Of a DNA stretch of 58,871 nucleotides, positions 1 to 13,537 are shown piece by piece; positions within the stretch are counted from its first letter, which is position 1; every line of letters starts with the position of its first letter. This DNA comes from Pseudobdellovibrionaceae bacterium (GTDB taxonomy: Bacteria; Bdellovibrionota; Bdellovibrionia; Bdellovibrionales; Bdellovibrionaceae). The stretch lies in NCBI GenBank assembly GCA_019637895.1, contig JAHBUU010000001.1:1-58871 (forward strand), written 5' to 3'. Under the pieces are notes generated by a model that was not told the origin of the DNA, did not search any database, and was given only the letters and a program-made list of their open reading frames with translations. The position numbers were made by a program, and so were the translations under genes.

Positions 1-347
1 GTAAAGACGGCGTCATGGCCTTCGAACCCGGTTTCGTCAATGCCCAGCCGGGAGATACCGTCGTTTTCATCCCGACCGATCGGGCCCACAACTCCACTTC
101 CCATCTCGTCCCGGACGGAGCGAAACCTTGGAAAGGGAAGATGGATGAAAAGCTCACCGTCAAACTCGACAAAGAAGGCGTCTACATCTTCAAATGCGAT
201 CCGCACCTTCCCATGGGCATGGTCGGAGTCATCCAAGTCGGAAAAGCCGTCAACCTCGCTGCGGCCAAAGAAAAAGCGGATGCTCTGTCGAAAACCTTCG
301 CGATGAACAAAGACCGACTCTCGAAATACATCGGGCAGGTCAAATGA
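1..347 (+). CDS. pseudoazurin (type-1 blue copper protein), 5' end cut by window edge
   Basis: The frame is open from nt 3 (KDGV precedes the M at 15). 'FEPGFVNAQPGDTVVFIPTDRAHN' plus the copper-ligand loop 'KCDPHLPMGM' (Cys-x2-His-x4-Met) match pseudoazurins. Stop TGA at 345-347. Confidence 0.85.
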   Translation, partial: KDGVMAFEPGFVNAQPGDTVVFIPTDRAHNSTSHLVPDGAKPWKGKMDEKLTVKLDKEGVYIFKCDPHLPMGMVGVIQVGKAVNLAAAKEKADALSKTFAMNKDRLSKYIGQVK

Positions 348-514
348 GCCAACAGAAGCACGAGGAATCCTCCGAGGAGAACCTCCCCTCCTTTCAAAAA
401 CTCTATGACCGGCCTTTCCTGTGGCTCACATTGGGGATGATCGTGATGGTCGTCTTCTATACCGCCTGGGGAATCTTCGAAATGACGAATCTCACCAAGG
501 CGCCTCTTCCGTAG
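344..514 (+). CDS. small single-TM protein (56 aa), possible oxidase subunit IIa-like accessory subunit
   Basis: The ATG at 344 overlaps the pseudoazurin stop (ATGA). It has one hydrophobic helix, 'PFLWLTLGMIVMVVFYTAWGIF'. It sits directly before subunits II and I, like cbaD in Thermus cbaDBA. There is no sequence similarity I can vouch for. Confidence 0.45.
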   Translation: MSQQKHEESSEENLPSFQKLYDRPFLWLTLGMIVMVVFYTAWGIFEMTNLTKAPLP

Positions 515-529
515 GCCTCAGACTGGAGA

Positions 530-1087
530 ATGACGATGTCAGAAACAGAAAGCATGCATTCCGGGATTGTCCCCCCACAGGGCGTCTGGTGGAAAAACGT
601 CCCTCCCCAAGAGAAAGTCTGGATCACCATCGCCTTCGTGTGGTGCATGATCCTGTTCGCGATGATGCCGGTTTGGCACATTCGCGGCGGACAGAATCCC
701 TCGGGGATCCGTCACAAAGTGGACCCGGCGGCCTTTTTGGAAAGAACCGAACGCTTCGTCGAAGAGTACAAGATCGGCGAGGAATCGGGGATCCCGGTGG
801 TCGAGCCACCGCCCGGCTCTCATGTGTATCTCGTCGGCCGAATGTGGCAGTGGTACCCCGTCCTGAAACTGAAGAAAGGTGTCGAGTACACACTTCATCT
901 GTCGTCCATCGACGTCAACCACGGTTTCGCCCTGTTCCCGGTCAATATCAACTTCCAGGTCATTCCCGGTTACGACTACGGCTTAAAGATCACGCCGAAT
1001 CAATCAGGGGATTTCCGAATCATCTGTAACGAGTTTTGTGGAATCGGCCATCACATGATGGTCGGCAAGGTTCTCGTCGTCGACTGA
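530..1087 (+). CDS. heme-copper oxidase subunit II (CuA, ba3/B-family-like, single TM)
   Basis: CuA motif 'DVNHGF...ICNEFCGIGHHMM' (H...CxExCGxxHxxM). One N-terminal TM helix. The short ~185-aa architecture resembles Thermus ba3 subunit II, and 'QEKVW' resembles the ba3 'YEKGW' K-channel entry Glu. Confidence 0.9.
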   Translation: MTMSETESMHSGIVPPQGVWWKNVPPQEKVWITIAFVWCMILFAMMPVWHIRGGQNPSGIRHKVDPAAFLERTERFVEEYKIGEESGIPVVEPPPGSHVYLVGRMWQWYPVLKLKKGVEYTLHLSSIDVNHGFALFPVNINFQVIPGYDYGLKITPNQSGDFRIICNEFCGIGHHMMVGKVLVVD

Positions 1088-1103
1088 CATGAAGGAGCAG
1101 CGA

Positions 1104-2834
1104 ATGAGTGGCGCGATTGAAAGACTAAGTTCCCGGTTCAGAACCTGTGCCGTCACTGGACTGAAGGTCAATAAAGATTCTGAAAACCTGATCAAGGCCA
1201 ATGCGGTGATCGCCATCGTCTGCCTGCTGATCGGAGTCACGGCGGCCTTCGGGCTCGTTCTGACCCGATGGCAGACGGTGCACCTCTTACCCGCCGAGAT
1301 GTACTACCGGTTCCTGACTCTCCATGGAATGAACATGCTGATCTTTTTCATCATCTTCTTCGAAATGGCGATCCTGTACTTTGCAGGACCGGTGCTGCTG
1401 AATGCCCGGCAACCAACACCGAAACTGGGCTGGGCCGCCTTCGGATTGATGGTCATCGGGATGATCATGGTGAACGTCATGATCCTGATGGGAAAAGCCG
1501 ACGTGCTCTTCACGTCCTACCCTCCTCTGCAGGCGCATCCTTTGTACTATCTGGGCGTCATCCTGTTCGCCGTCGGTGCCTTGCTGGCAACTTCACTTTT
1601 CTTTGCGGCCCTTGTGGTCGCGAAGCGCGAAAAAACCTATAAAGGCAGCGTCCCCTTGGTGACCTTCGGAGCTACCACGGCGGCCATCATTGCCGTCATC
1701 ACTCTAGTTCATGGAGCCGCGACCTATATCCCGGCACTTCTGTGGTCCATGAACCTGATCGAGCTCGATGCTCAGCTTTATCGGCTTTTGTTCTGGGCCT
1801 TGGGACACTCCTCACAGCAGATCAACGTCGCCGCGATGGTGTCCGTCTGGTATCTGTTGGGTGGCCTCACTGTCGGCGCGGTGGTTCTGAACGAAAAAGT
1901 CAGCCGGACCGCCTTTGTCCTTTATATCCTGTTCATTTCCATGGCTTCGGCTCACCATCTTTTAGTCGATCCTGGTTTTGGTTCCGCTTGGAAAATCTGG
2001 AACACCAGCTATGCGATGTATCTGGCGGTTCTGGCCAGTATGGTTCATGGATTCACCGTTCCCGCCGGTCTTGAGATCGGTCAGCGACTGCGCGGTTTCA
2101 ATGCTGGAAAATTCGAATGGCTTCGCAAAGCTCCTTGGGGCGATCCTGGCTTCTCGGGCATGGTCCTGTCCGTGGTGATCTTCGGATTCCTCGGAGGAAT
2201 CACCGGCGTCGTCATCGGAACCGAGCAGATCAATATCATCGTTCACAATACGATGAGACTCCCCGGTCACTTCCATGCCACCGTCGCGGGCGGAACCGCT
2301 CTCGCCTTCATGGCCGTGACTTACTATGTCTTGCCTTTGATCTTCCAAAAACGAATTGCCTTCTGGAAGCTCGCAAAACTTCAGCCTTGGATTTTCGGTG
2401 GCGGCATGAGCTTGATGTGCATGTCCATGATCTACATGGGGATCTTTGGTGTTCCCCGTCGTCACTGGGACTCCTCTTTCTCGAACGCCCCTTTCTCGGT
2501 GGAATTCCATCCGGCGGTTTGGATCTCGCAAGCCTCCATGGGAGTGGGTGGTCTATTGGCCGCCAGTGGCGCTCTCTTGTTCGTGATCATCGCGGTCGTC
2601 ACGGTCTTCTTTGGGAAACCGCTCACCGAACAGGCGATCCGCGAAGGCGCCAGTGGGATTCCTCAAGGCGTGCTGAAACTTCCGGCCCAACTGCACGAAG
2701 GAGAAAAGGTCGTTGCCGTTCACAAAAAGGGCGCACCGGGAACGATGGTTTTGATCATGATCTTCTTTGCCTGCTTCGTTCTTTACTACTTCGTGAACTG
2801 GAAAATCCTCTCCTTCCTGTGGAAAGTGGGATGA
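1104..2834 (+). CDS. heme-copper oxidase subunit I, B-family (ba3-like) but lacking the cross-linked Tyr; candidate NO reductase-type HCO
   Basis: Heme and CuB ligands are present: 'LTLHGMN' (helix II His), 'GHSSQQ' (codons 1806-1820), 'SAHHLLVDPG' (1953-1958) and 'VHNTMRLPGHFHATV' (2268-2276). By eye it aligns along its whole length with Thermus ba3 CbaA. The ATG at 1104 has SD AAGGAG 6 nt upstream. An alternative in-frame ATG lies at 1089. Confidence 0.9.
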   Translation: MSGAIERLSSRFRTCAVTGLKVNKDSENLIKANAVIAIVCLLIGVTAAFGLVLTRWQTVHLLPAEMYYRFLTLHGMNMLIFFIIFFEMAILYFAGPVLLNARQPTPKLGWAAFGLMVIGMIMVNVMILMGKADVLFTSYPPLQAHPLYYLGVILFAVGALLATSLFFAALVVAKREKTYKGSVPLVTFGATTAAIIAVITLVHGAATYIPALLWSMNLIELDAQLYRLLFWALGHSSQQINVAAMVSVWYLLGGLTVGAVVLNEKVSRTAFVLYILFISMASAHHLLVDPGFGSAWKIWNTSYAMYLAVLASMVHGFTVPAGLEIGQRLRGFNAGKFEWLRKAPWGDPGFSGMVLSVVIFGFLGGITGVVIGTEQINIIVHNTMRLPGHFHATVAGGTALAFMAVTYYVLPLIFQKRIAFWKLAKLQPWIFGGGMSLMCMSMIYMGIFGVPRRHWDSSFSNAPFSVEFHPAVWISQASMGVGGLLAASGALLFVIIAVVTVFFGKPLTEQAIREGASGIPQGVLKLPAQLHEGEKVVAVHKKGAPGTMVLIMIFFACFVLYYFVNWKILSFLWKVG

Positions 2835-2835
2835 C

Positions 2836-3753
2836 GTGAAACTGTCAAAAGGGGCTCCCTATCTGATGATGATGGTCTGGATCCTGGGGACCCTTTTGTG
2901 GTGGGGGCTCGCTTTTTACCCGACGGGGGAACAAACTCCCGAATGGCTGAGTGTCGCGAGGAACGTCTGCTTCGGAGCGATGGATGGGGGCCTGCCCGAT
3001 CCGGCGGGATGGATCGTCCTGACTTTGGGTCCACTGTCTTTTCTGATTGTGGGTCTCGTGGCCTGGCCGAAAGAACTCGGAAAGGCGCTGCGAGGAACCT
3101 GGTCCTCAGGCCTTGGAAAAGTCCTTGCCGTGGTCCTTCTTTTTTCCATCGGAGTCGAGGCCCACTGGGTCCGCAGCAAACTCGCGACAGCCGCTCTCTA
3201 TGAAAATTTCAGCTACAAGAACTCTTCGTCGGAGGACCTGCCCATCGGCTATCCTCGCACGGATCGACCAGCTCCGGATTTCACTCTGGTGGATCAGAGC
3301 GGTTCCGCGTTCCGACTGGCTGAGCACTCGAAAGAGACGATCCTGTTGACCTTTGCCTTTGCCCATTGTGATTCCGTCTGCCCCGTCCTCGTTCGTCAGG
3401 TGTTGGATGTCGCAGAAAGCTTCAAAGGCGGCGTTCGCGTTGTCGTCCTGACTCTGGATCCTTGGCGGGATACTCCGAAATCCCTGCCCTATCTGGCGCA
3501 AGAGTGGGAGTTCCCGGCAAAGGCCCATCTTCTGTCAGGGCCGGTGGCGGATGTGACCGACGTTCTGAAAAATTATCAGGTGTCTTCTCAGCGCAACGAG
3601 AAGACCGGCGACATCATTCATCCGGCTCTGGTCTATGTGATCGCGCCGGGCGGACGAATCGCTTACACCTTTAACAATGCGCCGGACCAGTGGCTGCGTC
3701 AGGCGATCGAACGGATTGCAAACGATGGTCGCACTCATTCGGCATCTCGATAG
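2836..3753 (+). CDS. SCO1/SenC-family copper chaperone with N-terminal multi-TM extension
   Basis: Thioredoxin-fold Cu motif 'FAHCDSVCP' (CxxxCP) and the distal His in 'DIIHPALVYVI'. About 3 predicted TM helices precede the domain. GTG start 1 nt after the subunit I stop. Confidence 0.85.
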   Translation: MKLSKGAPYLMMMVWILGTLLWWGLAFYPTGEQTPEWLSVARNVCFGAMDGGLPDPAGWIVLTLGPLSFLIVGLVAWPKELGKALRGTWSSGLGKVLAVVLLFSIGVEAHWVRSKLATAALYENFSYKNSSSEDLPIGYPRTDRPAPDFTLVDQSGSAFRLAEHSKETILLTFAFAHCDSVCPVLVRQVLDVAESFKGGVRVVVLTLDPWRDTPKSLPYLAQEWEFPAKAHLLSGPVADVTDVLKNYQVSSQRNEKTGDIIHPALVYVIAPGGRIAYTFNNAPDQWLRQAIERIANDGRTHSASR

Positions 3754-5704
3754 GTTCTTCAACCGCCTTTTTTCATCCCGTTACAACCCGATCCATGCTT
3801 CGGGAACCGTCGCTCTGGGACTTTTTTTTATTGTCCTGATCACCGGTCTTTATCTGAGCTTTTTTTATCGGCTCGGTGAACCCTACGAATCCGTCGCAGC
3901 CCTGAATGCCGATCTTTTTTTTGGCTCCTGGATCCGGGCGGTGCATCGTTATGCTTCGGACCTCATGGCGATCTCTGTCGTCTTTCACATCCTCCGAATG
4001 GTCGCCCAAGGAAAAACTTGGGGTCCAAGAACTCTGGCCTGGGTCACTGGCGTTGGCCTTGTGGGCCTGATGCTGATTTCCGCCTGGACCGGCTATGTGA
4101 TGGTTTGGGATGTCCAAGGACAGGCTCTCGCCATCGCCGGAGCCCGAATCATGGATTCCCTGGGGCTCTTTCCCGACCCCATCATGCGTTCCTTCAGCGG
4201 CGCCGAGAATGCCGCAGCCTCTTTCTTTTTCCTGAATCTCTTTCTGCATGTCGCGATTCCTCTGGGGATGGTGTTCGGCGTCTGGGCTCACACCTCGCGA
4301 ATCGCCAGAGCTGACTGGCTTCCGAGTCGTGCCTTCATGGGGGGACTCAGCGCTTTGCTGATTCTCGTCTCTGTTGTCTGGCCCGCTCCGCTGGGGCAAA
4401 AGGCGGATCTTCTGCTCCGGGTCTCTGAGTATCCGAAAGACTGGATTTTCAATTTTTGGATGCCTTGGACAGAGAGTTCCCCTTTGGCGGTCTTTGCATT
4501 TTTTATTTTGGGTGGACTCGTGCTCGCTGCGGCTCCCTGGTATCTGAAACCCCGGGAAAAACGGAAACCTTCGTTCAATGATCCGAATATCTGCATGGGC
4601 TGTTCCCAATGTGTGCAGGACTGTCCCTATGAAGCCATTCAAATGGTGTCCATGGACGTTCGCTCAAAAATGAAAGAAGTCGCTCTGGTCAATCCCGATC
4701 TCTGTGTCAGTTGCGGACTTTGTGCGGCCTCTTGTGAACCGATGACGATCGGACCCGAGGGACGCAAAGGAGGCCATCAAGTGCGGGCCGCCAAGGCCTT
4801 TATGGCTTCTCTCAATGGAAACCTTGCCGGACAAACCTTGATCGTGGGCTGCCGAAACCAAAGTGGCGTTCTCAAATACCTGAACAACAGTTGTCGAACG
4901 ACGGCGGGCTATCAACTGTACCCGGTCGACTGCCCGGGCACACTTCATAGCGTCGTTTACGGCTTGCTGGCTCAGAAATTTTCAAGAGTGGTCATCGCCT
5001 CCTGCCCCGAGCGAATCTGCGTGAACAAGGATGGCTCCATGCTGCTCAACGAAAGGCTCAGCGGAAAACGAGAACCCACTCTGCCCGAAAGCTCTCTTCA
5101 GAAAAAGATCCATGTCTTTCCGGTGGGAGAGGGCGAAGAATCCGCCTTCTTCCGCAATATCAGCAGTGGTCGCGAACTTCCCGTCGCTCGCAAAGGACTT
5201 CGATCCATTCCAGCCTCGGCGATTGTCGCGGGCCTCGGGATTGTTCTGATCGCGGCCGTTCTCACTCGTTCGCCATCGCCCGCCATTTCCGACAAAGGAC
5301 TGCTGCGTCTCAATATCCGGCTCGTCGGTCAGACTGAAAAAACCTGCCGCCCCCCCTCCGCCGAAGAGACCGCAAAGCTCCCTCTGCATATGAGAGCCGC
5401 CGAGATTTGCAGCTATCGTTCTCTCAGCTACCGCATGAAGCTCAACATCGATGGCAAGGAGATCCTTGATGAACCCGTCCATCCAGGGGGGCTCAAACGC
5501 GACCGACCTCTTTATGTCAGTCGAGACATCGAAGTCGACAGCGGAACCCACCGGATCGAATTTTCGATGGAGCCGCTGGAGGCCAGCGCCCAAACCCTGA
5601 GCCTGGCTCTGCAGAAAAACGTTGAATTTCGACCAGGACAAATCGCTCTGATTCGCTACTCGCCCGATGAAAAGAACGCCGTTCTCAAGGAGAAAGCACC
5701 ATGA
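3725..5704 (+). CDS. fusion protein: di-heme cytochrome b (bc1/b6 N-terminal type) + 2x[4Fe-4S] ferredoxin + MvhD/FlpD-like domain + TM + C-terminal beta-rich domain
   Basis: Two His pairs are each spaced by 13 intervening residues: 'AVHRY..VVFHIL' and 'LFLHVA..VWAHTS'. Ferredoxin motifs 'CMGCSQCVQDCP' and 'CVSCGLCAASCEP'. MvhD-like pattern 'LIVGCRN...VDCPG...VVIASCPERICVNKDG'. A late TM helix 'AIVAGLGIVLIAAVL' is followed by ~150 aa. The start is uncertain (ATG 3725, or an upstream start at 3677). Confidence 0.8.
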   Translation: MVALIRHLDRFFNRLFSSRYNPIHASGTVALGLFFIVLITGLYLSFFYRLGEPYESVAALNADLFFGSWIRAVHRYASDLMAISVVFHILRMVAQGKTWGPRTLAWVTGVGLVGLMLISAWTGYVMVWDVQGQALAIAGARIMDSLGLFPDPIMRSFSGAENAAASFFFLNLFLHVAIPLGMVFGVWAHTSRIARADWLPSRAFMGGLSALLILVSVVWPAPLGQKADLLLRVSEYPKDWIFNFWMPWTESSPLAVFAFFILGGLVLAAAPWYLKPREKRKPSFNDPNICMGCSQCVQDCPYEAIQMVSMDVRSKMKEVALVNPDLCVSCGLCAASCEPMTIGPEGRKGGHQVRAAKAFMASLNGNLAGQTLIVGCRNQSGVLKYLNNSCRTTAGYQLYPVDCPGTLHSVVYGLLAQKFSRVVIASCPERICVNKDGSMLLNERLSGKREPTLPESSLQKKIHVFPVGEGEESAFFRNISSGRELPVARKGLRSIPASAIVAGLGIVLIAAVLTRSPSPAISDKGLLRLNIRLVGQTEKTCRPPSAEETAKLPLHMRAAEICSYRSLSYRMKLNIDGKEILDEPVHPGGLKRDRPLYVSRDIEVDSGTHRIEFSMEPLEASAQTLSLALQKNVEFRPGQIALIRYSPDEKNAVLKEKAP

Positions 5705-7041
5705 ATGGATCTCTCGCAAAGGCATGGGTTTCTCTGGGAGTGGTCGCTCTTCTCGCCAGCGGCTTGCTCGCGATCCTCGTCACCGGTGCCAAGATGCCGG
5801 GGGTGAAACATCTGGCGGACGTCGAGTTCATCCGGTGGTGCCTCGTGGTTCATGTTAACCTCGCGACACTGGTCTGGTTCACGGCCCTTCCCGTGGGTTT
5901 GCTGCATCTGTCAACGAAAGTGCGGGGTACCTTCAGCACACAGCTTTCCTGGGCAGGATTCCTGCTGGCACTGATCGGTATGCTGCTCTTGTTCAGCGTT
6001 CCCCCTCAAGAGGGTGTCCGCCCCATTCTGTCTAACTACATTCCTGTTCTCAGTCACCCCCGTTACTCCATCGGGATCGCCGTCTATCTGGCGGGCATTG
6101 CTCTTGGCCTGCTGTCTCCGAAGTTTTTTGTCGACTCTTTTTCCATCGCGAAAAGATGGCCAGGCCTGCTGGAAATTCGCTTTGGCCTTTTTGTCGGTTC
6201 AACCTTTATCGGCCTGGCCATTGTCACCCTGGCTCTTGCTTTCAAGGATCTCGCTTCGGTTCCATTGATTTCGGAGTTTCGTTTTTTTGAACTGGGAATG
6301 TGGGGAGGTGGGCACTTGATTCAGCACGCCTCGGCTGTTTTCACGGTCTGCGCCTGGGTGCTTTTTTTGTCACGACGAGTGGACCAACCGATTCTTTCTC
6401 GCTCTGAACTCTTTGTGGTCTTTGGGTGGATCGGCCTGCCGATCTTTTTTGTCCCCGTCATTCTGTTCTTCGATGTCACGGGTGGCGATTACAGACAGGG
6501 CTTTACCTGGCTGATGCAGTGGGGAATCGCACCACCGATTGTCTTTTTTCTCGGCCGAGCCCTTTGGCGCCTTTCTCCGCGTCTGTCCGACTTGAAAAAT
6601 CACGAGATCGTTGCTTTTTTTCTAAGTGCCTCACTTTTGCTGATGGGTTTCGTCTTCGGAGCTTTCATCCGCGGACCCGATATGCGGGTTCCGGGTCACT
6701 ATCATGCCAGCATCGGCGCCGTGACTCTTGCTTTTATGGCCCTGGGATATCTCCTGCTAGCCGACCGAGCAGAGAGCCGCTGGATGCTGAAGTCCATGTG
6801 GTTCTACGGTGTCGGCCAAGCGGTTTTTGCAGGGGGAATGTTCCTGGCTGGTTCCTTCGGAATGCCACGGAAAACCTATGGGGCTGAACACGTCTTCACG
6901 CATTGGGGACAGGGTCTCGGTGTCGCCGTGATGGCCATCGGTGGGATGGGTGCTCTCATCGGTGGAATCCTTTTTGCGGTGGCGATCATTCCTCGCTTGA
7001 AATCGACGGCGCCTCTGGCCGGGAAGGTGGCTCATGTCTAA
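5701..7041 (+). CDS. divergent, shortened heme-copper-oxidase subunit I paralog (446 aa) lacking the helix-VII His-His CuB ligands
   Basis: It retains 'LVVHVNLATLVWF' (helix II His, codon 5851), 'VPGHYHASIGAVTLAF' (HxH, 6697-6705) and 'MPRKTYG'. Helix VI reads 'WGGGHLIQH' (His 6313, His 6325). No HH motif is found where ba3 has 'GFHHQFADPG'. The ATG overlaps the upstream stop (ATGA). Confidence 0.7.
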   Translation: MNGSLAKAWVSLGVVALLASGLLAILVTGAKMPGVKHLADVEFIRWCLVVHVNLATLVWFTALPVGLLHLSTKVRGTFSTQLSWAGFLLALIGMLLLFSVPPQEGVRPILSNYIPVLSHPRYSIGIAVYLAGIALGLLSPKFFVDSFSIAKRWPGLLEIRFGLFVGSTFIGLAIVTLALAFKDLASVPLISEFRFFELGMWGGGHLIQHASAVFTVCAWVLFLSRRVDQPILSRSELFVVFGWIGLPIFFVPVILFFDVTGGDYRQGFTWLMQWGIAPPIVFFLGRALWRLSPRLSDLKNHEIVAFFLSASLLLMGFVFGAFIRGPDMRVPGHYHASIGAVTLAFMALGYLLLADRAESRWMLKSMWFYGVGQAVFAGGMFLAGSFGMPRKTYGAEHVFTHWGQGLGVAVMAIGGMGALIGGILFAVAIIPRLKSTAPLAGKVAHV

Positions 7042-8029
7042 GTCTAAAAAACTGCTGTGGTTGCTGAGTCTGCTCATCATGCTTTTTTCCATGGTCGCTG
7101 TGGGCGGCATCACCCGACTGACAAAGTCCGGTCTGTCGATCACCGAATGGCGACCGGTCACAGGCACGCTGCCACCCCTGTCGGAAGAAGCCTGGCAAAA
7201 AGAGTTCGATCTTTATCGCAGCTCGCCCGAATTTGAGCACCACAACAATCATTTCGAACTCGAAGATTACAAAGGCATTTTCTGGTGGGAATATCTTCAC
7301 CGCCTGTTGGGACGGGTGATCTTTTTCACCGCGACGGTCATGGGCTTTGTCTTTTGGCGGAAGAAAGAATTCTCGGGCAAACGCGCTCTGCTTTTGCCGG
7401 CCTTGATCGCCTTTCAAGGGCTGATTGGCTGGCTGATGGTCAAGACGGGGCTCAATCACCGCCCCTCTGTCAGCCATTATATGCTCGCGGTTCATTTTCT
7501 ACTGGCTCTGCTCACCATGAGCGTCGTCTATCATTCCCTTGCAAAGATGAAACAGCCTCTGGTTGTGAAGCTTTCAACGAAGGGCCGTTTCTTGATCGGT
7601 TTGCTGGGAGGCTTGATCCTGCTGCAGATCCTTTATGGCTGCTTCACCGGAGGCCTGAGAGCGGGGCTTTACTTCAATACGTTTCCTTTGATGGATGGCC
7701 GCGTGCTCCCTCCTCAAGGCTGGGATCTGGTTCCCGGCTTTCGAAATCTTTTTGAAAACCCCATCACCGTGCAGTGGATCCATCGATGGTTGGGCATTGG
7801 CCTTGCCGTCATTCTTCCCCTTGTGAGCTTTCATCTGCTCCGGTGCGAAAGCCCAGCGTTCAAAAGACCGATCCTGCATTTGGTGAGTGTCGTCGTCATC
7901 CAAGTCCTCTTGGGAATCTCGACCTTGCTCTTTCTGGTCCCGGTGCCCCTCGCCGTCTTTCACCAAGCGATGGCCGCCCTGATCTGGCTGGGCTATTGCA
8001 ATCTGATCTTCCGAATCAAGACCCCCTAG
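7034..8029 (+). CDS. ctaA: heme A synthase (COX15/CtaA family)
   Basis: 'VGGITRLTKSGLSITEWRPVTG' is the typical COX15/CtaA N-terminal signature. It is a multi-TM protein with conserved His residues ('YLHRLLGR', 'HFLLAL', 'IHRWLG', 'FHQAMA'). It overlaps the upstream gene by 8 nt. Confidence 0.85.
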   Translation: MSKSKKLLWLLSLLIMLFSMVAVGGITRLTKSGLSITEWRPVTGTLPPLSEEAWQKEFDLYRSSPEFEHHNNHFELEDYKGIFWWEYLHRLLGRVIFFTATVMGFVFWRKKEFSGKRALLLPALIAFQGLIGWLMVKTGLNHRPSVSHYMLAVHFLLALLTMSVVYHSLAKMKQPLVVKLSTKGRFLIGLLGGLILLQILYGCFTGGLRAGLYFNTFPLMDGRVLPPQGWDLVPGFRNLFENPITVQWIHRWLGIGLAVILPLVSFHLLRCESPAFKRPILHLVSVVVIQVLLGISTLLFLVPVPLAVFHQAMAALIWLGYCNLIFRIKTP

Positions 8030-8130
8030 CCCGACGCTTCTTAAAGCCGGGTTAAAGCCCATAGAGAGGGGAAAAATTCACAGTTCATTCCCCTAATGAC
8101 CAAATCGTCAAATTCGTATAGACTTTCCCT

Positions 8131-8880
8131 ATGTCGATCAAATCAGAAAAAGATCTCGAAGGGCTTCGGAAAATCGGTCGTATCGTGGCGCGATGCCTGC
8201 AGCTCATGCAATCGAAGCTCGAGCCCGGAATGACAACCGCTGAACTGGATGCCATCGGCGGGCAGTTTTTGGCCTCGCATGGAGCCCGATCGGCGCCGCA
8301 GCTGACTTATAACTTCCCTGGTTTCACTTGTATCAGCGTCAACGAAGAAGCGGCCCACGGCATTCCCGGCAGCCGAGTTTTACAGGCCGGAGATCTGGTG
8401 AACATCGACGTTTCGGCTGAGCTGGACGGCTACTTTGCCGACACCGGTGGCTCTGCGGTCATTCCTCCGGAATCGAAGCTCTATCTGCAAATCTGTGCTG
8501 TCGCGAAACAAGCCCTCGAAAATGCCATGCTGGAAGCGCGAGCCGGAGCCAAGCTGAACCGCATCGGTTTTGCCATCGAGGCCGAAGCCGTCAAAAATGG
8601 ACTCACCGTCATCGAAAATCTGGGAAGCCACGGCGTCGGTCGCGCTCTGCACGAAGAGCCGGGCTTTATCCCCGGTTATTATGACAAACGCGACAAGCGA
8701 GTTTTGCGGGAAAATCAGGTCATCACAATCGAGCCTTTTATTTCGTCCGGCGCCCGTGAAGTCTTTGAAAATGGCGACGGTTGGACTCTGATGACAAGCC
8801 CCGGAGTCTTCACCGCTCAATACGAGCACACGATGGTGATCACCAAAGGCAAACCGCTCATCATGACACTGCCGAACTGA
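8131..8880 (+). CDS. map: methionine aminopeptidase, type I
   Basis: Full-length match to the MetAP-I pattern: 'CISVNEEAAHGIP', 'GDLVNIDVSAELDGYFADTG', 'GHGVGRALHEEP', 'ITIEPF', 'QYEHTMVIT'. Confidence 0.95.
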   Translation: MSIKSEKDLEGLRKIGRIVARCLQLMQSKLEPGMTTAELDAIGGQFLASHGARSAPQLTYNFPGFTCISVNEEAAHGIPGSRVLQAGDLVNIDVSAELDGYFADTGGSAVIPPESKLYLQICAVAKQALENAMLEARAGAKLNRIGFAIEAEAVKNGLTVIENLGSHGVGRALHEEPGFIPGYYDKRDKRVLRENQVITIEPFISSGAREVFENGDGWTLMTSPGVFTAQYEHTMVITKGKPLIMTLPN

Positions 8881-8895
8881 GCGCTTGCGAACCGC

Positions 8896-10663
8896 TCACT
8901 CGGAGATGCCAATATTCAGTTTCGCAAAATAACGCCGACCGGGTTCACCATATCCATAGTCATTGCCTAAGACATGGTTCCCGACGTTTTCGACCACGAA
9001 GCCCACCGAGGCCTCCTTGAGGATTTGTCGCGGGATCTTATAAGAGCTTCCGAGATTCCAAAGAAGATACTCGGCCAACTGCTGATTGATCCCTCCGCTC
9101 TCGACCGTTCGTCGCCCATGATAGCTGAGCGTCGAGTGAAAACCGAGCCGGTCGGAAAAGTCCCATTCTCCGGTCAGATTGGAAATCATTCGGGGAGTAT
9201 TGGTCAAAATGCGATCCTCGGTCAGATTGCGGGCTTCGGTGTAGGTGAGGTTCCCTTTCAGCAGAAACATTTCCGTCAGCCGATAAGAAGCGCCGCCTTC
9301 GATCCCCTGAGTTCTCGCCCCATCAATGTTCTTCAAGAGGCGATACCGATCCGTTCCAATGGTTTCAAAATAGGTCGTGATCATGTCATCGAGATCTGCT
9401 CGGAACACCGTCAGATTCAAACCCGTGCGTTCCGTCTTGAAGTAAAGACCCGCTTCGTAGCTGACGCTTTTTTCCGGCGACAAATCGGAGTTTCCGATCA
9501 TCGTGCAGGCCCCTTGGCAGCTAGGAAGATGAAAGTTCGGATCCATTTCCAAAAGTCCCGGAGGCTTGTAACCCGTCCCCACGCCGGTTTTGAGCGTCAA
9601 GTCGGAGCTGAGCTGGCTGGTCAAATAGGCGCGTGGGCTCAGATGAGACCCAAAGCTGTCGTGTTTCGTTTGTCGAAGGCCTAAAGTCAGAACCGAGTCA
9701 GCCGTGACAGAAATCGAATCCTCGATAAAGACCGCTAGTTGGCTTGCTTTGGTTTCCCCCGTCGTCAGTTGAGCCTGATTCCGCAAAACGTTTTTTTCTG
9801 CGTCGATGCCGGCGACGATGAAGTGGCTCTCGCCGATCGCCCGTTGCAACTGCGCCTGTGCGGTTTCGGTCCCTAAGCGAGCCTTCGCTCCGTCCTCGTA
9901 ATCATAAAAGTCTCCGGAAACTCGAAGTGTCGTCTTGGTGTTTTCCCAGATCCCCTTGTGTTGGGCATCGAAATGATCACGTTTGATTTTTGTCGTCCGT
10001 GGTGTCCCTCGGGACAGCATTTCTTTTTTTTGAAAATTTCGCCCGAGATTCAACCCCAGCTCCTGGCCCGGACTGACCTTCCAACTGAGTTCGCCATCAT
10101 AAGAGGAATCATCGCGCCCATCATATTGACGGGAATCACTGGCCGCAAATTCAGGACGTGGTTTTTGCAGACTGCGTCCGGTGAGTTTCAAACCCAACTG
10201 ATCCCGCTTCAAAGGACCACTCACAGAAAACTGAGTCTGGTGCTGCGTCTTTGATTCTTTCGATGTCCTGCGGGGAAATCCAAGACAGATCGGCATCGTC
10301 ATTTTGACGAACAGACAGCGAGCGCGAGGTCAGGCGCCTCCCATCGACAAGAATCAGGGCATAGCTGGAATCAAATCCCCTCAGACTCACTCCCCGGTTT
10401 GTTCCCCCGATGAGCATGACGCCATCTGCGTAGCGCAGGACATCCGCCACCGTGCTGACCGTCTGTTTTTCGATTTCCTCATGGGTGATGATCGAAATAC
10501 TTGCCGGAGCCTGCTGGATATCCTGCTCGATCAGAGAGGCCGATTCGACCCGGATCACTCCGAGAACGGTCTCTTCGGTACCCGTCGAAGGCTCCGCAAA
10601 AGTGGCCGAGGAAAAAACAAGAAGAAATGTTGCTGCAAAAAACCGCGTCATGAGGAGACTCAT
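8896..10663 (-). pseudogene. TonB-dependent receptor, disrupted (frameshift plus loss of the conserved plug-barrel junction)
   Basis: The N-terminal ORF (to 10151) has a signal peptide and plug ('VSLRGFDSSYALILVDGRRL', 'DLSWISPQDIERIK'). The beta-barrel ORF (8896-10302) is in another frame. The frames switch around 10240-10260. The usual 'IEV.RGP.S.LYGS.A.GGVINIITK' segment is absent in both frames. The start codon is uncertain (10651, 10663 or 10675). Confidence 0.6.
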
Positions 10664-10790
10664 GACCGAGGCCATATCGAAATCCCCATCTCCAGGCAAT
10701 GCGATGTCTGAACACAGAGGCAGTTGAAAGCAATTTAAAAACGAGGACCACCGAACTGCAAGTCAAATGAGTTTCCGTGAAAGCCTCGGA

Positions 10791-11262: not shown

Positions 11263-11736
11263 TTAAAGCAGACGGAGAAAGAAGCCATCCACCACGATAA
11301 TCAGCGCCACGGTCCACCCCAACATCAGCACCAGCAGAACCCAAAGATCCCACTTGGACGGAGGATCGCGCCGTTTCATCTCGACGAAATTCAAGGTCGC
11401 TACAAAATTAAAGACCAAGGGGAGCAAGAAGCCAAGAAGACTGAAGATGACCACTCGCTTCCGATAGTTCTTTCGAGCCGGAAGATCGTCAGCAGAGGTT
11501 TCAGCGCCCTCCCCATCGGCCAAAAACTCGTCCAAAACATGTTTGGCGGAAATAAAGTCGCGTTCGGAAATATACAGATCCGCTCTGTCCTGAACTCCAC
11601 CCAGAACGAGCGTGGTGTACTCCCTCGGCTGAGAGACCACTCGTGCTTCGATGCCTTTTCGTTCGAGCTGTTCTTTGACGGCCAAGGCCATCCAACCCTG
11701 CTCGAAACGATGCAATTTCTTTTCGGCCATGCTCAT
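11263..11736 (-). CDS. hypothetical membrane protein (soluble N-terminal domain + 2 C-terminal TM helices)
   Basis: The ORF has protein-like composition. The N-terminal ~70 aa are reminiscent of small DUF2007-type domains. TM segments 'VVIFSLLGFLLPLVFNFVATL' and 'LWVLLVLMLGWTVALIIVV'. Confidence 0.45.
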   Translation of the reverse strand: MSMAEKKLHRFEQGWMALAVKEQLERKGIEARVVSQPREYTTLVLGGVQDRADLYISERDFISAKHVLDEFLADGEGAETSADDLPARKNYRKRVVIFSLLGFLLPLVFNFVATLNFVEMKRRDPPSKWDLWVLLVLMLGWTVALIIVVDGFFLRLL

Positions 11737-11807
11737 CGGTAACGAGAAGAACCTGGACTGTCAATGAACGGTTTTCTTGCATAGACTAGGAGCCCTAGAG
11801 AGGCTTC

Positions 11808-12782
11808 ATGTTTGGACATCTTCAAGAACTCGATCAACTCCAACAGCTCCTTGAACGGTTCCCTCTTCCGAATCTGCAAACTCGGACCTTGGCCACCGTC
11901 GAAACAGCAAAAAAAACCTATCCAATTCTGGGACTGACTCTTGGCAACCCCGATCCCTCGGCGCCCACTCTTTTTCTTGTCGGTGGCGTTCATGGTTTGG
12001 AAAAAATCGGTTCACAGGTTTTGATTGCCTATCTGGCGGTTCTTTTCCGCCAGCTCACTTGGGACGAACACCTGCAGGAACTTTTTAAAAAAGTTCGCAT
12101 CTGCACGATTCCGATCTTGAACCCCGGCGGAATGGCCCACTCTCGTCGAAGCAACCCGAACGGTGTCGATTTGATGAGAAACGCTCCCGTCGAGAGCCTC
12201 TCATCGAATCGTCCTTGGCTGATCGGTGGCCAGCGTCTGAGTCCCCGACTGCCGTGGTATCGCGGACCCGAGGGCGCGCCGCTTGAACGGGAAGCGCAAA
12301 CCCTGATCGACTTCGCCAAGGAAAACTGCCTAACGGCAAAGACCTGCTTGGCCATCGATTTTCACTCCGGCTTCGGGATGAGGGACCGATTGTGGTACCC
12401 CTACGCAAAAACTCAGGAGCCTTTCCCGAAACTCAAAGAGGCGATGGCACTGAAAACGCTTCTTGATCTGACCTATGCCCATCATGTCTACAAGATCGAA
12501 TCCCAGTCTGACAGCTACACCACTCACGGAGATCTCTGGGACTATCTGTTTGAAATTCACGAAAGCTCGCCACTTTATCGAGATCATCTGTTCCTGCCCT
12601 GGACACTCGAGATGGGCTCTTGGACATGGCTGAAAAAAAATCCACTTCAGATTCTCAGCCCGCACGGACTGTTCCACCCGATGAAGCTGCACCGTTATTC
12701 ACGGGTCATGCGTCGGCACATTCTGCTGATCGATTTTTTCCTGAAGGCCACCGCCCATAGCTCCAGCTGGAGCCCTCGATGA
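11808..12782 (+). CDS. M14-family zinc carboxypeptidase-like protein (DUF2817-like)
   Basis: Zn ligands 'GGVHGLEKIG' (HxxE) and 'AIDFHSGFG' (distal His), plus 'IPILNPGGMAHSRRSNPNGVDLMRN'. Confidence 0.7.
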   Translation: MFGHLQELDQLQQLLERFPLPNLQTRTLATVETAKKTYPILGLTLGNPDPSAPTLFLVGGVHGLEKIGSQVLIAYLAVLFRQLTWDEHLQELFKKVRICTIPILNPGGMAHSRRSNPNGVDLMRNAPVESLSSNRPWLIGGQRLSPRLPWYRGPEGAPLEREAQTLIDFAKENCLTAKTCLAIDFHSGFGMRDRLWYPYAKTQEPFPKLKEAMALKTLLDLTYAHHVYKIESQSDSYTTHGDLWDYLFEIHESSPLYRDHLFLPWTLEMGSWTWLKKNPLQILSPHGLFHPMKLHRYSRVMRRHILLIDFFLKATAHSSSWSPR

Positions 12783-13537
12783 CGAACTGGGTTTTCATCC
12801 GCGGCCTCGGTCGACAGAAAACCCACTGGAAAGGCTTTCCGGAAAAACTCCAGGCCCGACTCGGAGGAGACATCCACTGTCTCGATCTCCCCGGCGTCGG
12901 CGAAAAATCCCCATTGAAATCTCCGCTCAGAATCTCGGAGTATTCAGAGAATCTCCATCAAGAACTCAGCTCCCTCAAATCGAAAGCGGATCCCCAAACC
13001 CCGTGGGCACTGGTTGCGGTGAGCCTCGGCGGCATGGTCGGTTTGGATTGGGTCTCGCGGTTCCCATCGGACTTTCAAACTCTTGTCACGATCAATACCA
13101 GCTCGAAGGACCTGAGCCCTCTTTTTCACCGCCTGCAACCTCGGGCTTTAAAAACGGTCCTGCGACTTTTCTGGAGCAATGACATTCGCGCTCGGGAAAA
13201 AGCGATTCTCGAGCTCACTACCAATCTGGTCACAATCGATGAGGAGCTGCTTGATCTCTGGGTTTCTTTCGATCGGCAATATCCCCTGACACGACCAGTT
13301 TTTCTGCGGCAGCTGCTGGCCGCCACTGGATTTCGCCTGCCGCCCTCGCTCCCCACGCGAACCCTGGTGTTGGCTTCGGAGCAAGATCACTTGGCTCACC
13401 CCCAATGTTCACGAGCCCTGGCCCGGCACTTTCAAACCGAATTGGCCGTGCACCCCACGGCCGGTCACGACCTGGTCTTGGATGCTCCCGAATGGGCGAT
13501 CGATCAGCTCGAAAAATTTATGATGTCGAAGAAATGA
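12779..13537 (+). CDS. alpha/beta-fold hydrolase
   Basis: 'WVFIRGLGRQKTHW', nucleophile elbow 'AVSLGGMVG', C-terminal 'HPTAGHDLVLD' (catalytic His region). The start overlaps the upstream stop (ATGA). Confidence 0.75.
   Translation: MTNWVFIRGLGRQKTHWKGFPEKLQARLGGDIHCLDLPGVGEKSPLKSPLRISEYSENLHQELSSLKSKADPQTPWALVAVSLGGMVGLDWVSRFPSDFQTLVTINTSSKDLSPLFHRLQPRALKTVLRLFWSNDIRAREKAILELTTNLVTIDEELLDLWVSFDRQYPLTRPVFLRQLLAATGFRLPPSLPTRTLVLASEQDHLAHPQCSRALARHFQTELAVHPTAGHDLVLDAPEWAIDQLEKFMMSKK

Follow-up and report, generated by a model that had tools for sequence, protein, structure and literature searches.

The first 8,029 nucleotides of a 58,871-nucleotide stretch of DNA (hereafter the window: positions 1 to 58,871, forward strand, of contig JAHBUU010000001.1, assembly GCA_019637895.1) probably hold the operon of a nitric oxide (NO) reductase of the eNOR family from an uncultured Pseudobdellovibrionaceae-like bacterium. 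Eight genes lie on the + strand of this region. In order, they encode a pseudoazurin, a small protein with a single transmembrane (TM) helix, subunits II and I of the reductase, a Sco/SenC copper chaperone, a multidomain cytochrome b/iron-sulfur (FeS) protein that we refer to as gene 6, a degenerate paralog of subunit I, and the heme A synthase CtaA. The proposed eNOR membership stands on signature residues, on the distribution of homologs among taxa and on synteny with a described operon of Ferrigenium. Gene 6 is a dedicated partner of this eNOR clade, and its linkage to the clade is exclusive.

Subunit I carries the active-site residues of eNOR

Subunit I (1089..2834, + strand) is a heme-copper oxidoreductase (HCO) derived from the B family (COX1 profile, 220.5 bits), and its nearest solved structure is the ba3 oxidase of Thermus thermophilus (E about 1e-46). 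When the two are aligned, H233 of ba3 is kept, but the tyrosine of the His-Tyr cross-link, Y237, is replaced by Q244; S309 corresponds to S317, T312 to H320 and Y248 to Y255, and the helix VI motif reads GHSSQQIN rather than GHPIVYFW. Residue conservation was assessed in alignments built from the fetched loci, comprising 100 subunit I and 135 subunit II sequences. All six canonical His ligands of the two hemes and the CuB/FeB site are present (H79, H240, H289, H290, H394 and H396). The first five of these, together with Q244 and Y255, are invariant, while S317, H320 and H396 each occur in 99 of the 100 homologs; the two propionate Arg residues are likewise invariant or nearly so. A first-pass annotation of this DNA, made from the sequence alone, had pointed out the missing cross-link tyrosine, and its absence proves to be general, with Gln in 100/100 homologs.

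These residues are diagnostic. A published table of active-site residues assigns Tyr to the oxygen reductases, Gln to eNOR, Asp to gNOR and Asn to both sNOR and bNOR (PMC8756737 Table A4), and the eNOR of Rhodothermus marinus has Q245, S318, H321 and Y256 in subunit I and E(II)21 in subunit II (Murali et al. preprint, Supplementary Table 1). The window's Q244, S317, H320 and Y255 are the R. marinus residues offset by one, and E(II)28 is the counterpart of E(II)21. The phyla in which homologs occur, which include Gemmatimonadota, Acidobacteriota, Methylomirabilota, Myxococcota, Nitrospirota, Deinococcota and Bdellovibrionota, agree with the published eNOR counts: a table of GTDB genomes by phylum lists eNOR in five Bdellovibrionota genomes, and Gemmatimonadota and Deinococcota are also already counted (Murali preprint). 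Because both the diagnostic residues and the taxon distribution match, we file the enzyme under eNOR.

The first-pass annotation had instead been reminded of the norSY-senC-orf1 (sNOR) clusters of ammonia oxidisers. There is a general likeness, in that sNOR is also a putative NO reductase with a B-derived, Tyr-less subunit I and a CuA subunit, followed by SenC/Sco and a further open reading frame (ORF). The resemblance does not extend to the active site. sNOR has Asn at the Tyr site (N243) and no Ser in the position of ba3 S309 (Murali et al. preprint, Supplementary Table 1), and its putative channel is a different one; the window protein has Gln and the Ser, plus a His at the T312 site that is specific to eNOR; moreover, the phylum table counts zero sNOR in Bdellovibrionota. 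That the cluster is an sNOR system is therefore scarcely credible, and we rejected it.

A divergent ba3-like oxygen reductase serving microoxic respiration is also very unlikely, if slightly less so. Such an enzyme would explain why ba3 is the closest solved structure and why an arrangement like that of cbaDBA is retained; in addition, CtaA requires O2, and public records label the subunit I homologs cytochrome c oxidase. However, the helix VI cross-link residue is missing throughout the alignment, R. marinus eNOR does not reduce O2, and homologous clusters lie in nir/nos neighbourhoods; membership in the ba3 O2 reductases was rejected on the missing cross-link residue. Two further families were discarded: bNOR on its signature residues, since it has Asn at the Tyr site, and gNOR, in which one active-site His is replaced by Asp and subunit II has no CuA ligands, because here all the His and CuA ligands are present. 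Names such as cytochrome c oxidase conceal NO reductase potential in genome surveys.

One variation within the family was noticed in a homolog on a Thermus thermophilus megaplasmid (L007 7983-9668, NZ_LR027520.1), where GHFK replaces GHFH, implying His/Lys ligation of the low-spin heme. Such ligation has been described for some eNORs (Murali preprint).

Subunit II, the small helix protein and pseudoazurin

Subunit II (530..1087, +) consists of one TM helix and a CuA cupredoxin domain (COX2, 24 bits against a cut-off of 22, with a CoxB match). Its CuA ligands, H131, C166, C170, H174 and M177, are invariant in all 135 homologs, as is Glu28, which precedes the TM helix. Directly upstream, in the position of ba3 subunit IIa, is the 56-residue mini-TM protein with its single membrane helix (344..514, +). 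It has no Pfam or NCBIfam match, yet it is found immediately ahead of subunit II in 70/80 genome loci. Overall, the alignments show a core of IIa-like helix, CuA subunit II and subunit I that is predicted to house two hemes and a His3 metal site, with Gln in the place of the cross-link Tyr.

The operon as seen in the window begins with pseudoazurin (1..347, +; TIGR02375, 125.9 bits against an equivalog cut-off of 109.85), in which the type-1 copper ligands His..Cys-x2-His-x4-Met can be read from the sequence. This protein is the likely periplasmic electron donor to CuA. Its reading frame is open to base 1, implying that the window edge truncates the gene at its 5' end and that the operon extends upstream, as the first-pass annotation had supposed. 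An ortholog in locus L008, where subunit I is 92% identical, is full length with a signal peptide, and at most one further small membrane-protein ORF lies ahead of it. Among the compared loci, pseudoazurin is whole only there. In L001, whose subunit I is 94% identical, a remnant at 9144-9236 covers 28% of the gene. Whole in one close relative and reduced to a remnant in another, pseudoazurin is a variable add-on even between close relatives.

The eight genes form an operon

The ORF list and direct reading of the junctions show how tightly the eight genes are packed over 1-8029. Pseudoazurin and the mini-TM gene share an ATGA overlap (..347 / 344), as do gene 6 and the HCO paralog (5704 / 5701). 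Gaps of 15 nt separate the mini-TM gene from subunit II (514 / 530), and of 1 nt subunit II from subunit I (1087 / 1089) and subunit I from Sco (2834 / 2836), which starts with GTG. Sco and gene 6 overlap by 29 nt (3753 / 3725), the paralog and CtaA by 8 nt (7041 / 7034), all on the + strand. Gene 6 has an alternative ATG at 3677, but the database copy is 659 residues long, which agrees with a start at 3725. The co-directional, translationally coupled arrangement described in the first-pass annotation is thus upheld, and profile searches support the identity that it gave to each of the eight products, the MvhD/FlpD domain being weak in the window protein.

The same annotation had named fortuitous juxtaposition as one of the outcomes that would undo its proposal. 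Because the order recurs in L001 and L008, and the core in ~150 other loci, the eight-gene order is a real operon and not a chance arrangement. A promoter and terminator scan of 1-9000 found sites no more often than in shuffled sequence and gave no internal operon boundary.

The start of subunit I may lie slightly downstream of the annotated one. Its homologs are 575-576 residues long, compared with 581 from the ATG at 1089. Translation may really begin at codon 6, a second in-frame Met (ATG at 1104), which would leave 16 nt rather than 1 between the genes for subunits II and I.

On the 3' side, CtaA is followed by a 101-nt gap, an unrelated M24 peptidase gene, a TonB-dependent receptor and housekeeping genes. 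The receptor is broken into two ORFs, one with the Plug and one with the beta-barrel (window 8896-10302 and 10151-10699, both on the - strand). The two overlap by ~150 nt in different frames, indicating a frameshift and hence either a pseudogene or an assembly error.

A conserved core with a reciprocal link to gene 6

We scanned one genome per species, which yielded more than 513 relatives, and took the best 80 loci, with subunit I 55-92% identical; their neighbourhoods were scored by tblastn with the window proteins. Within these 80 loci the mini-TM protein was found in 70, subunit II in 78, Sco in 70 and gene 6 in 69. The core of mini-TM, subunit II, subunit I and Sco is kept across ~15 phyla. 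Where at least 4.5 kb of sequence is available on both flanks, gene 6 is adjacent in every genome locus (32/32). The reverse also holds: gene 6 led to 80 metagenome loci, and all 41 of those with at least 3.5 kb upstream contain eNOR subunit I.

Gene 6 occurs in two layouts. In Bdellovibrionota, Eisenbacteria, Methylomirabilota, Latescibacterota and others, it lies downstream on the same strand and is full length. In Gemmatimonadota and many others, it lies upstream and is divergent, covers ~70% of the query and is followed by a separate gene of ~170 residues that corresponds to the C-terminus of the window protein. In most other genomes, then, the periplasmic beta-sandwich of gene 6 is a gene of its own. 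Many Gemmatimonadota loci (for example L021, L024, L026, L034 and L053) have an Rrf2-family regulator gene between the divergent gene 6 and the eNOR genes; such a gene is present in 12/80 genome loci and 12/80 metagenome loci, and the regulator could be an NsrR-like NO sensor.

Other neighbours belong to denitrification. In L088 the cluster is flanked on one side by NnrS/Crp and on the other by nirK-like, nirV-like, nosZ, nosL, nosD and ABC-transporter genes. The Thermus copy (L007) adjoins nirS-like, multicopper-oxidase and Rrf2 genes. Genes for hemerythrin come after the cluster in L005 and L087 and ahead of it in L088. Because homologous clusters adjoin nirS, nirK, nos, NnrS, Rrf2 and hemerythrin genes, the neighbourhoods support a role in NO metabolism. 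Within the host's own phylum, a Bdellovibrionaceae metagenome-assembled genome (GCA_020635075.1, L170) has a cd1 nirS, with cytochrome c and Cytochrom_D1 domains, at 11309-13270, directly after gene 6 in a module ordered mini-TM/II/I/Sco/cytochrome b-FeS; some Bdellovibrionota therefore pair the module with nirS.

Gene 6 joins a cytochrome b to iron-sulfur and periplasmic domains

The N-terminal part of gene 6 (residues 1-272; 3725..4540, +) is a di-heme cytochrome b of the bc1/b6 type with six TM helices (Cytochrome_B, 56.3 bits). Two His pairs, H74/H88 and H175/H189, each with x13 spacing, are invariant in 46 homologs, on which all the conservation figures for this protein are based. The best Foldseek matches of the membrane part in the PDB are bc1 cytochrome b chains, and it shares with them the four heme His ligands. 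The P-side loop between helices E and F contains a conserved P-x-D-W-F-Y-x-F-W motif (D239-W-F-Y-x-F-W245), which we take to line up with the Qo-site PEWYFLFA of bc1, a lead rather than a result. Gene 6 differs from bc1/b6f in having an FeS/MvhD-like domain on the N side and no Rieske or cytochrome c1/f partner; neither gene was found beside the cluster in the Pfam tables of L001-L004, L088, L089 and L170, the other loci having been screened with the window proteins alone.

A positively charged linker connects the membrane part to a ferredoxin domain with two [4Fe-4S] clusters and a four-Cys domain resembling MvhD/FlpD (residues 286-466; 4580..5122, +). Fer4 families match this region, both CxxCxxCxxxC motifs are invariant, and by profile comparison the ferredoxin domain comes closest to its C-terminal counterpart in HdrA (5odc_A, E = 2e-14). 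In the MvhD-like alpha/beta domain, C403, C427 and C432 are invariant and C376 is present in 45/46 homologs. The FlpD (PF02662) match of the window protein itself is weak (E = 0.01; 16.3 bits, cut-off 22.3), but orthologs carry unmarked FlpD matches.

The last part (residues 497-659; 5213..5704 including the stop codon, +), a fourth domain missed in the first-pass annotation, is a TM anchor followed by a beta-sandwich of ~135 residues. H555-M556 is invariant within it, and C541 and C562 are each found in 45/46 homologs. An AF2 model of gene 6 has a pLDDT of 87.6 and a pTM of 0.85, with a pLDDT of 90 for the anchor and periplasmic part. Foldseek comparison of this domain with the PDB returned only generic beta-sandwiches (best E = 0.011) and no chaperone or cupredoxin match, and neither it nor its standalone homologs match Pfam. 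It occurs in 1167 representative clusters, either standalone at ~170 residues or as the C-terminus of cytochrome b-FeS proteins of 650-750 residues; a profile search of 1.8 billion representative proteins revealed no new fusion partner. From the known topology of cytochrome b, in which the N-terminus is on the N side, we infer that the FeS domains are cytoplasmic and that this last domain is periplasmic.

Sco, the HCO-like paralog and CtaA

The Sco/SenC copper chaperone (2836..3753, +; SCO1-SenC, PF02630, 72.8 bits) has a conserved N-terminal extension that has no Pfam match. Across 95 sequences the CxxxC motif (C178, C182) does not vary, and 99% of them have H262. The extension itself, which the first-pass annotation had flagged as unusual, spans residues 1-138 (window 2836-3250) and apparently contains three TM helices; C45-F46, G58-W59 and P66 are invariant across the same set.

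The HCO paralog encoded by the seventh gene (5701..7041, +) falls just below the COX1 cut-off (34.2 against 34.8 bits), but hhalign aligns it with the subunit I profile over 417 columns (probability 99.9%, E = 2.6e-32). It is degenerate, as had been suggested: the helix-II His, the first CuB/FeB His and the H-x-H heme ligands are retained and the HH pair is lost. It can probably still bind two hemes and probably cannot form a binuclear site. Its most plausible role is in heme handling, or as an assembly scaffold or chaperone. The paralog belongs to a family of its own, with at least 815 proteins, and is rarer than gene 6, occurring beside eNOR clusters in L001, L073, L084, L088 and L089. It probably falls in the same family as the product of Ferrigenium gene 2878407321, named 'eNOR scaffold protein' and assigned to KEGG K02274, cytochrome oxidase subunit I (10.64898/2026.01.22.701106).

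CtaA (7034..8029, +) matches COX15-CtaA (PF02628) with 308.6 bits over model positions 3-319 of 322. Its presence fits what is known of the enzyme, since eNOR has a heme A variant and many eNOR operons include CtaA (Murali et al. 2024, PMC11214002). Across the related loci, however, the presence of CtaA or CtaB is variable.

Relation to described enzymes and operons

The best-characterised relative is the eNOR of R. marinus DSM 4252, which reduces NO at 0.68 NO per second with TMPD/ascorbate as donor and does not reduce O2 (PMC11214002). Like the window enzyme, it has the Q/S/H/Y set in subunit I, the Glu in subunit II, a CuA subunit II, a B-family origin and a link to heme A. It has been characterised as two catalytic subunits, to which the window operon adds pseudoazurin, Sco, the cytochrome b/FeS protein, the HCO-like paralog and CtaA. 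T. thermophilus ba3 (cbaDBA) shares with the window the order of small helix protein, subunit II and subunit I, the single-TM subunit II and the layout of the K-channel, but it has the His-Tyr cross-link, reduces O2 and has no cytochrome b/FeS partner.

The first-pass annotation had regarded the composition of the operon as non-canonical and could place the cytochrome b/FeS fusion, the pseudoazurin and ctaA in no described system. In fact, eNOR operons with CtaA have been reported (PMC11214002), as has an operon in Ferrigenium straubiae that combines eNOR II, eNOR I, heme o synthase, Sco1, a scaffold protein, PerM and two cytochrome b/[Fe-S] proteins (bioRxiv 10.64898/2026.01.22.701106). Nitrate-reducing Fe(II) oxidation induces this operon, whose proteins have been detected (10.64898/2026.01.22.701106). 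Ferrigenium and the window thus have in common eNOR II, eNOR I, Sco1, an HCO-like scaffold protein and a cytochrome b/[Fe-S] protein; the IMG name of the last in Ferrigenium, 'ferredoxin/F420-reducing hydrogenase delta subunit', is also that of many gene 6 homologs. The Ferrigenium operon differs in having PerM, heme o synthase where the window has CtaA, and an additional cytochrome b/FeS protein joined to FAD and NADH domains; pseudoazurin is absent from it. All of the window's operon genes except pseudoazurin and the small helix protein therefore have a described counterpart in an eNOR operon. The Ferrigenium authors call the cytochrome b genes 'rather unusual', whereas in the window's clade they are the rule.

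A model for the eNOR operon and its alternatives

By analogy with the R. marinus enzyme, CuA would receive electrons on the periplasmic side, with the co-translated pseudoazurin as the most likely donor, and would pass them to the low-spin heme and on to the high-spin heme and non-heme metal site. At this binuclear site the predicted reaction is 2 NO + 2 e- + 2 H+ -> N2O + H2O. Protons may be drawn from the cytoplasm through a K-channel-like path comprising E(II)28, Y255, S317 and H320, in which case the reaction would be electrogenic. Going by the established functions of their families, Sco would load CuA and CtaA would supply the heme A-type cofactor.

For gene 6, our tentative preference, held with somewhat less than even confidence, is a transmembrane module for electron input or maintenance. 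Such a module would couple a quinol-type pocket on the P side, a cytoplasmic reductant or both, via the two b hemes, to the periplasmic side of eNOR. The arrangement would be comparable in principle to that of NosR and NosGH, membrane FeS accessory proteins encoded beside the periplasm-facing nitrous oxide reductase; gene 6 has no sequence relationship to NosR. We favour electron input because redox modules of this kind adjoin other denitrification enzymes, because the motif resembles a quinol pocket and because the b hemes span the membrane.

Several observations weigh against this picture or parts of it. Subunit I has a second tyrosine that is invariant in all 100 homologs, Y279 (window 1923-1925). 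It lies in helix VII, ten residues ahead of the HH pair, compared with six for the relocated cross-link Tyr of C-family oxidases. A respiratory role in this host finds no support in the rest of the window, where tblastn searches for nir, nos, NnrS and ctaB genes found none, the sole match being that of the NosZ CuA domain to subunit II. With nir and nos missing from the window, the enzyme may serve NO detoxification or a partial denitrification pathway here rather than respiration. The eNOR clusters of Thermus and Thermomicrobium have neither Sco nor gene 6, implying that neither is required for catalysis as such. Finally, in the Ferrigenium proteome the cytochrome b/FeS values (23.9-26.2; units unstated, n = 1) are like those of Sco1 and far below those of eNOR I/II (31.6), so an accessory or assembly role fits at least as well as that of an electron donor.

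These last two points bear on a different explanation, in which genes 5-7 are purely maturation factors and gene 6 is a transmembrane metalloreductase similar to NOX/FRE. Cytoplasmic electrons would travel through the FeS clusters and both b hemes to the periplasmic Cys/His-Met/Cys domain and there reduce Cu(II) or Fe(III); the reduced metal would be handed to the special Sco or to the subunit I site, while the paralog held hemes during assembly. Gene 6 is indeed nearly always found with Sco, and the Thermus and Thermomicrobium clusters that lack one lack the other. The soft ligands of the periplasmic domain (C541, H555-M556 and C562) are near-invariant, the Sco extension has an invariant Cys, and a relative in Ferrigenium carries a fused NAD(P)H-flavin reductase domain. 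However, no known HCO assembly pathway employs such a protein, the periplasmic domain is unlike any known metallochaperone fold, and the conserved Qo-like D-W-F-Y motif would have no obvious use in a metal reductase. Moreover, in L016, which has Sco, gene 6 is missing from the 10 kb upstream and the 4 kb downstream. We consider pure maturation the main competitor of electron input, and the less likely of the two.

A bolder scheme, and an improbable one, combines gene 6 and eNOR into an electron-bifurcating unit that resembles bc1 but has no Rieske protein; it would be energetically demanding. Quinol would be oxidised at the P-side D-W-F-Y pocket. One electron, drawn by the very high-potential NO/N2O couple, would go through the periplasmic domain, or through pseudoazurin and CuA; the other would pass hemes bL and bH into the chain of two [4Fe-4S] clusters and the MvhD-like domain and on to a low-potential acceptor, such as NAD(P)+ or ferredoxin. 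If this were true, NO reduction would drive reverse electron flow. A similar idea has been raised for the FAD/NADH-fused relative in Ferrigenium (10.64898/2026.01.22.701106).

Significance

The enzyme family is known and biochemically characterised, its occurrence in Bdellovibrionota is catalogued, and an earlier description of this operon type includes transcript and proteome data. In one recent survey of estuarine and coastal waters, eNOR genes led the NO reductase genes in both abundance and transcription (PMC13592168). The interest of the window now lies in the near-universal, reciprocal link between this eNOR clade and a cytochrome b/FeS/MvhD-like protein with an orphan periplasmic domain, together with the extended Sco and, in some lineages, the HCO-like paralog. 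The window and ~150 loci outline a large eNOR clade that spans many phyla and has fixed partners: a special Sco and, in the membrane, the multi-cofactor cytochrome b/FeS protein, to which some lineages add an HCO-like heme protein and pseudoazurin. These partners offer candidates for the route by which electrons reach eNOR, for the building of its metal sites and for energy conservation by eNOR-based denitrification.

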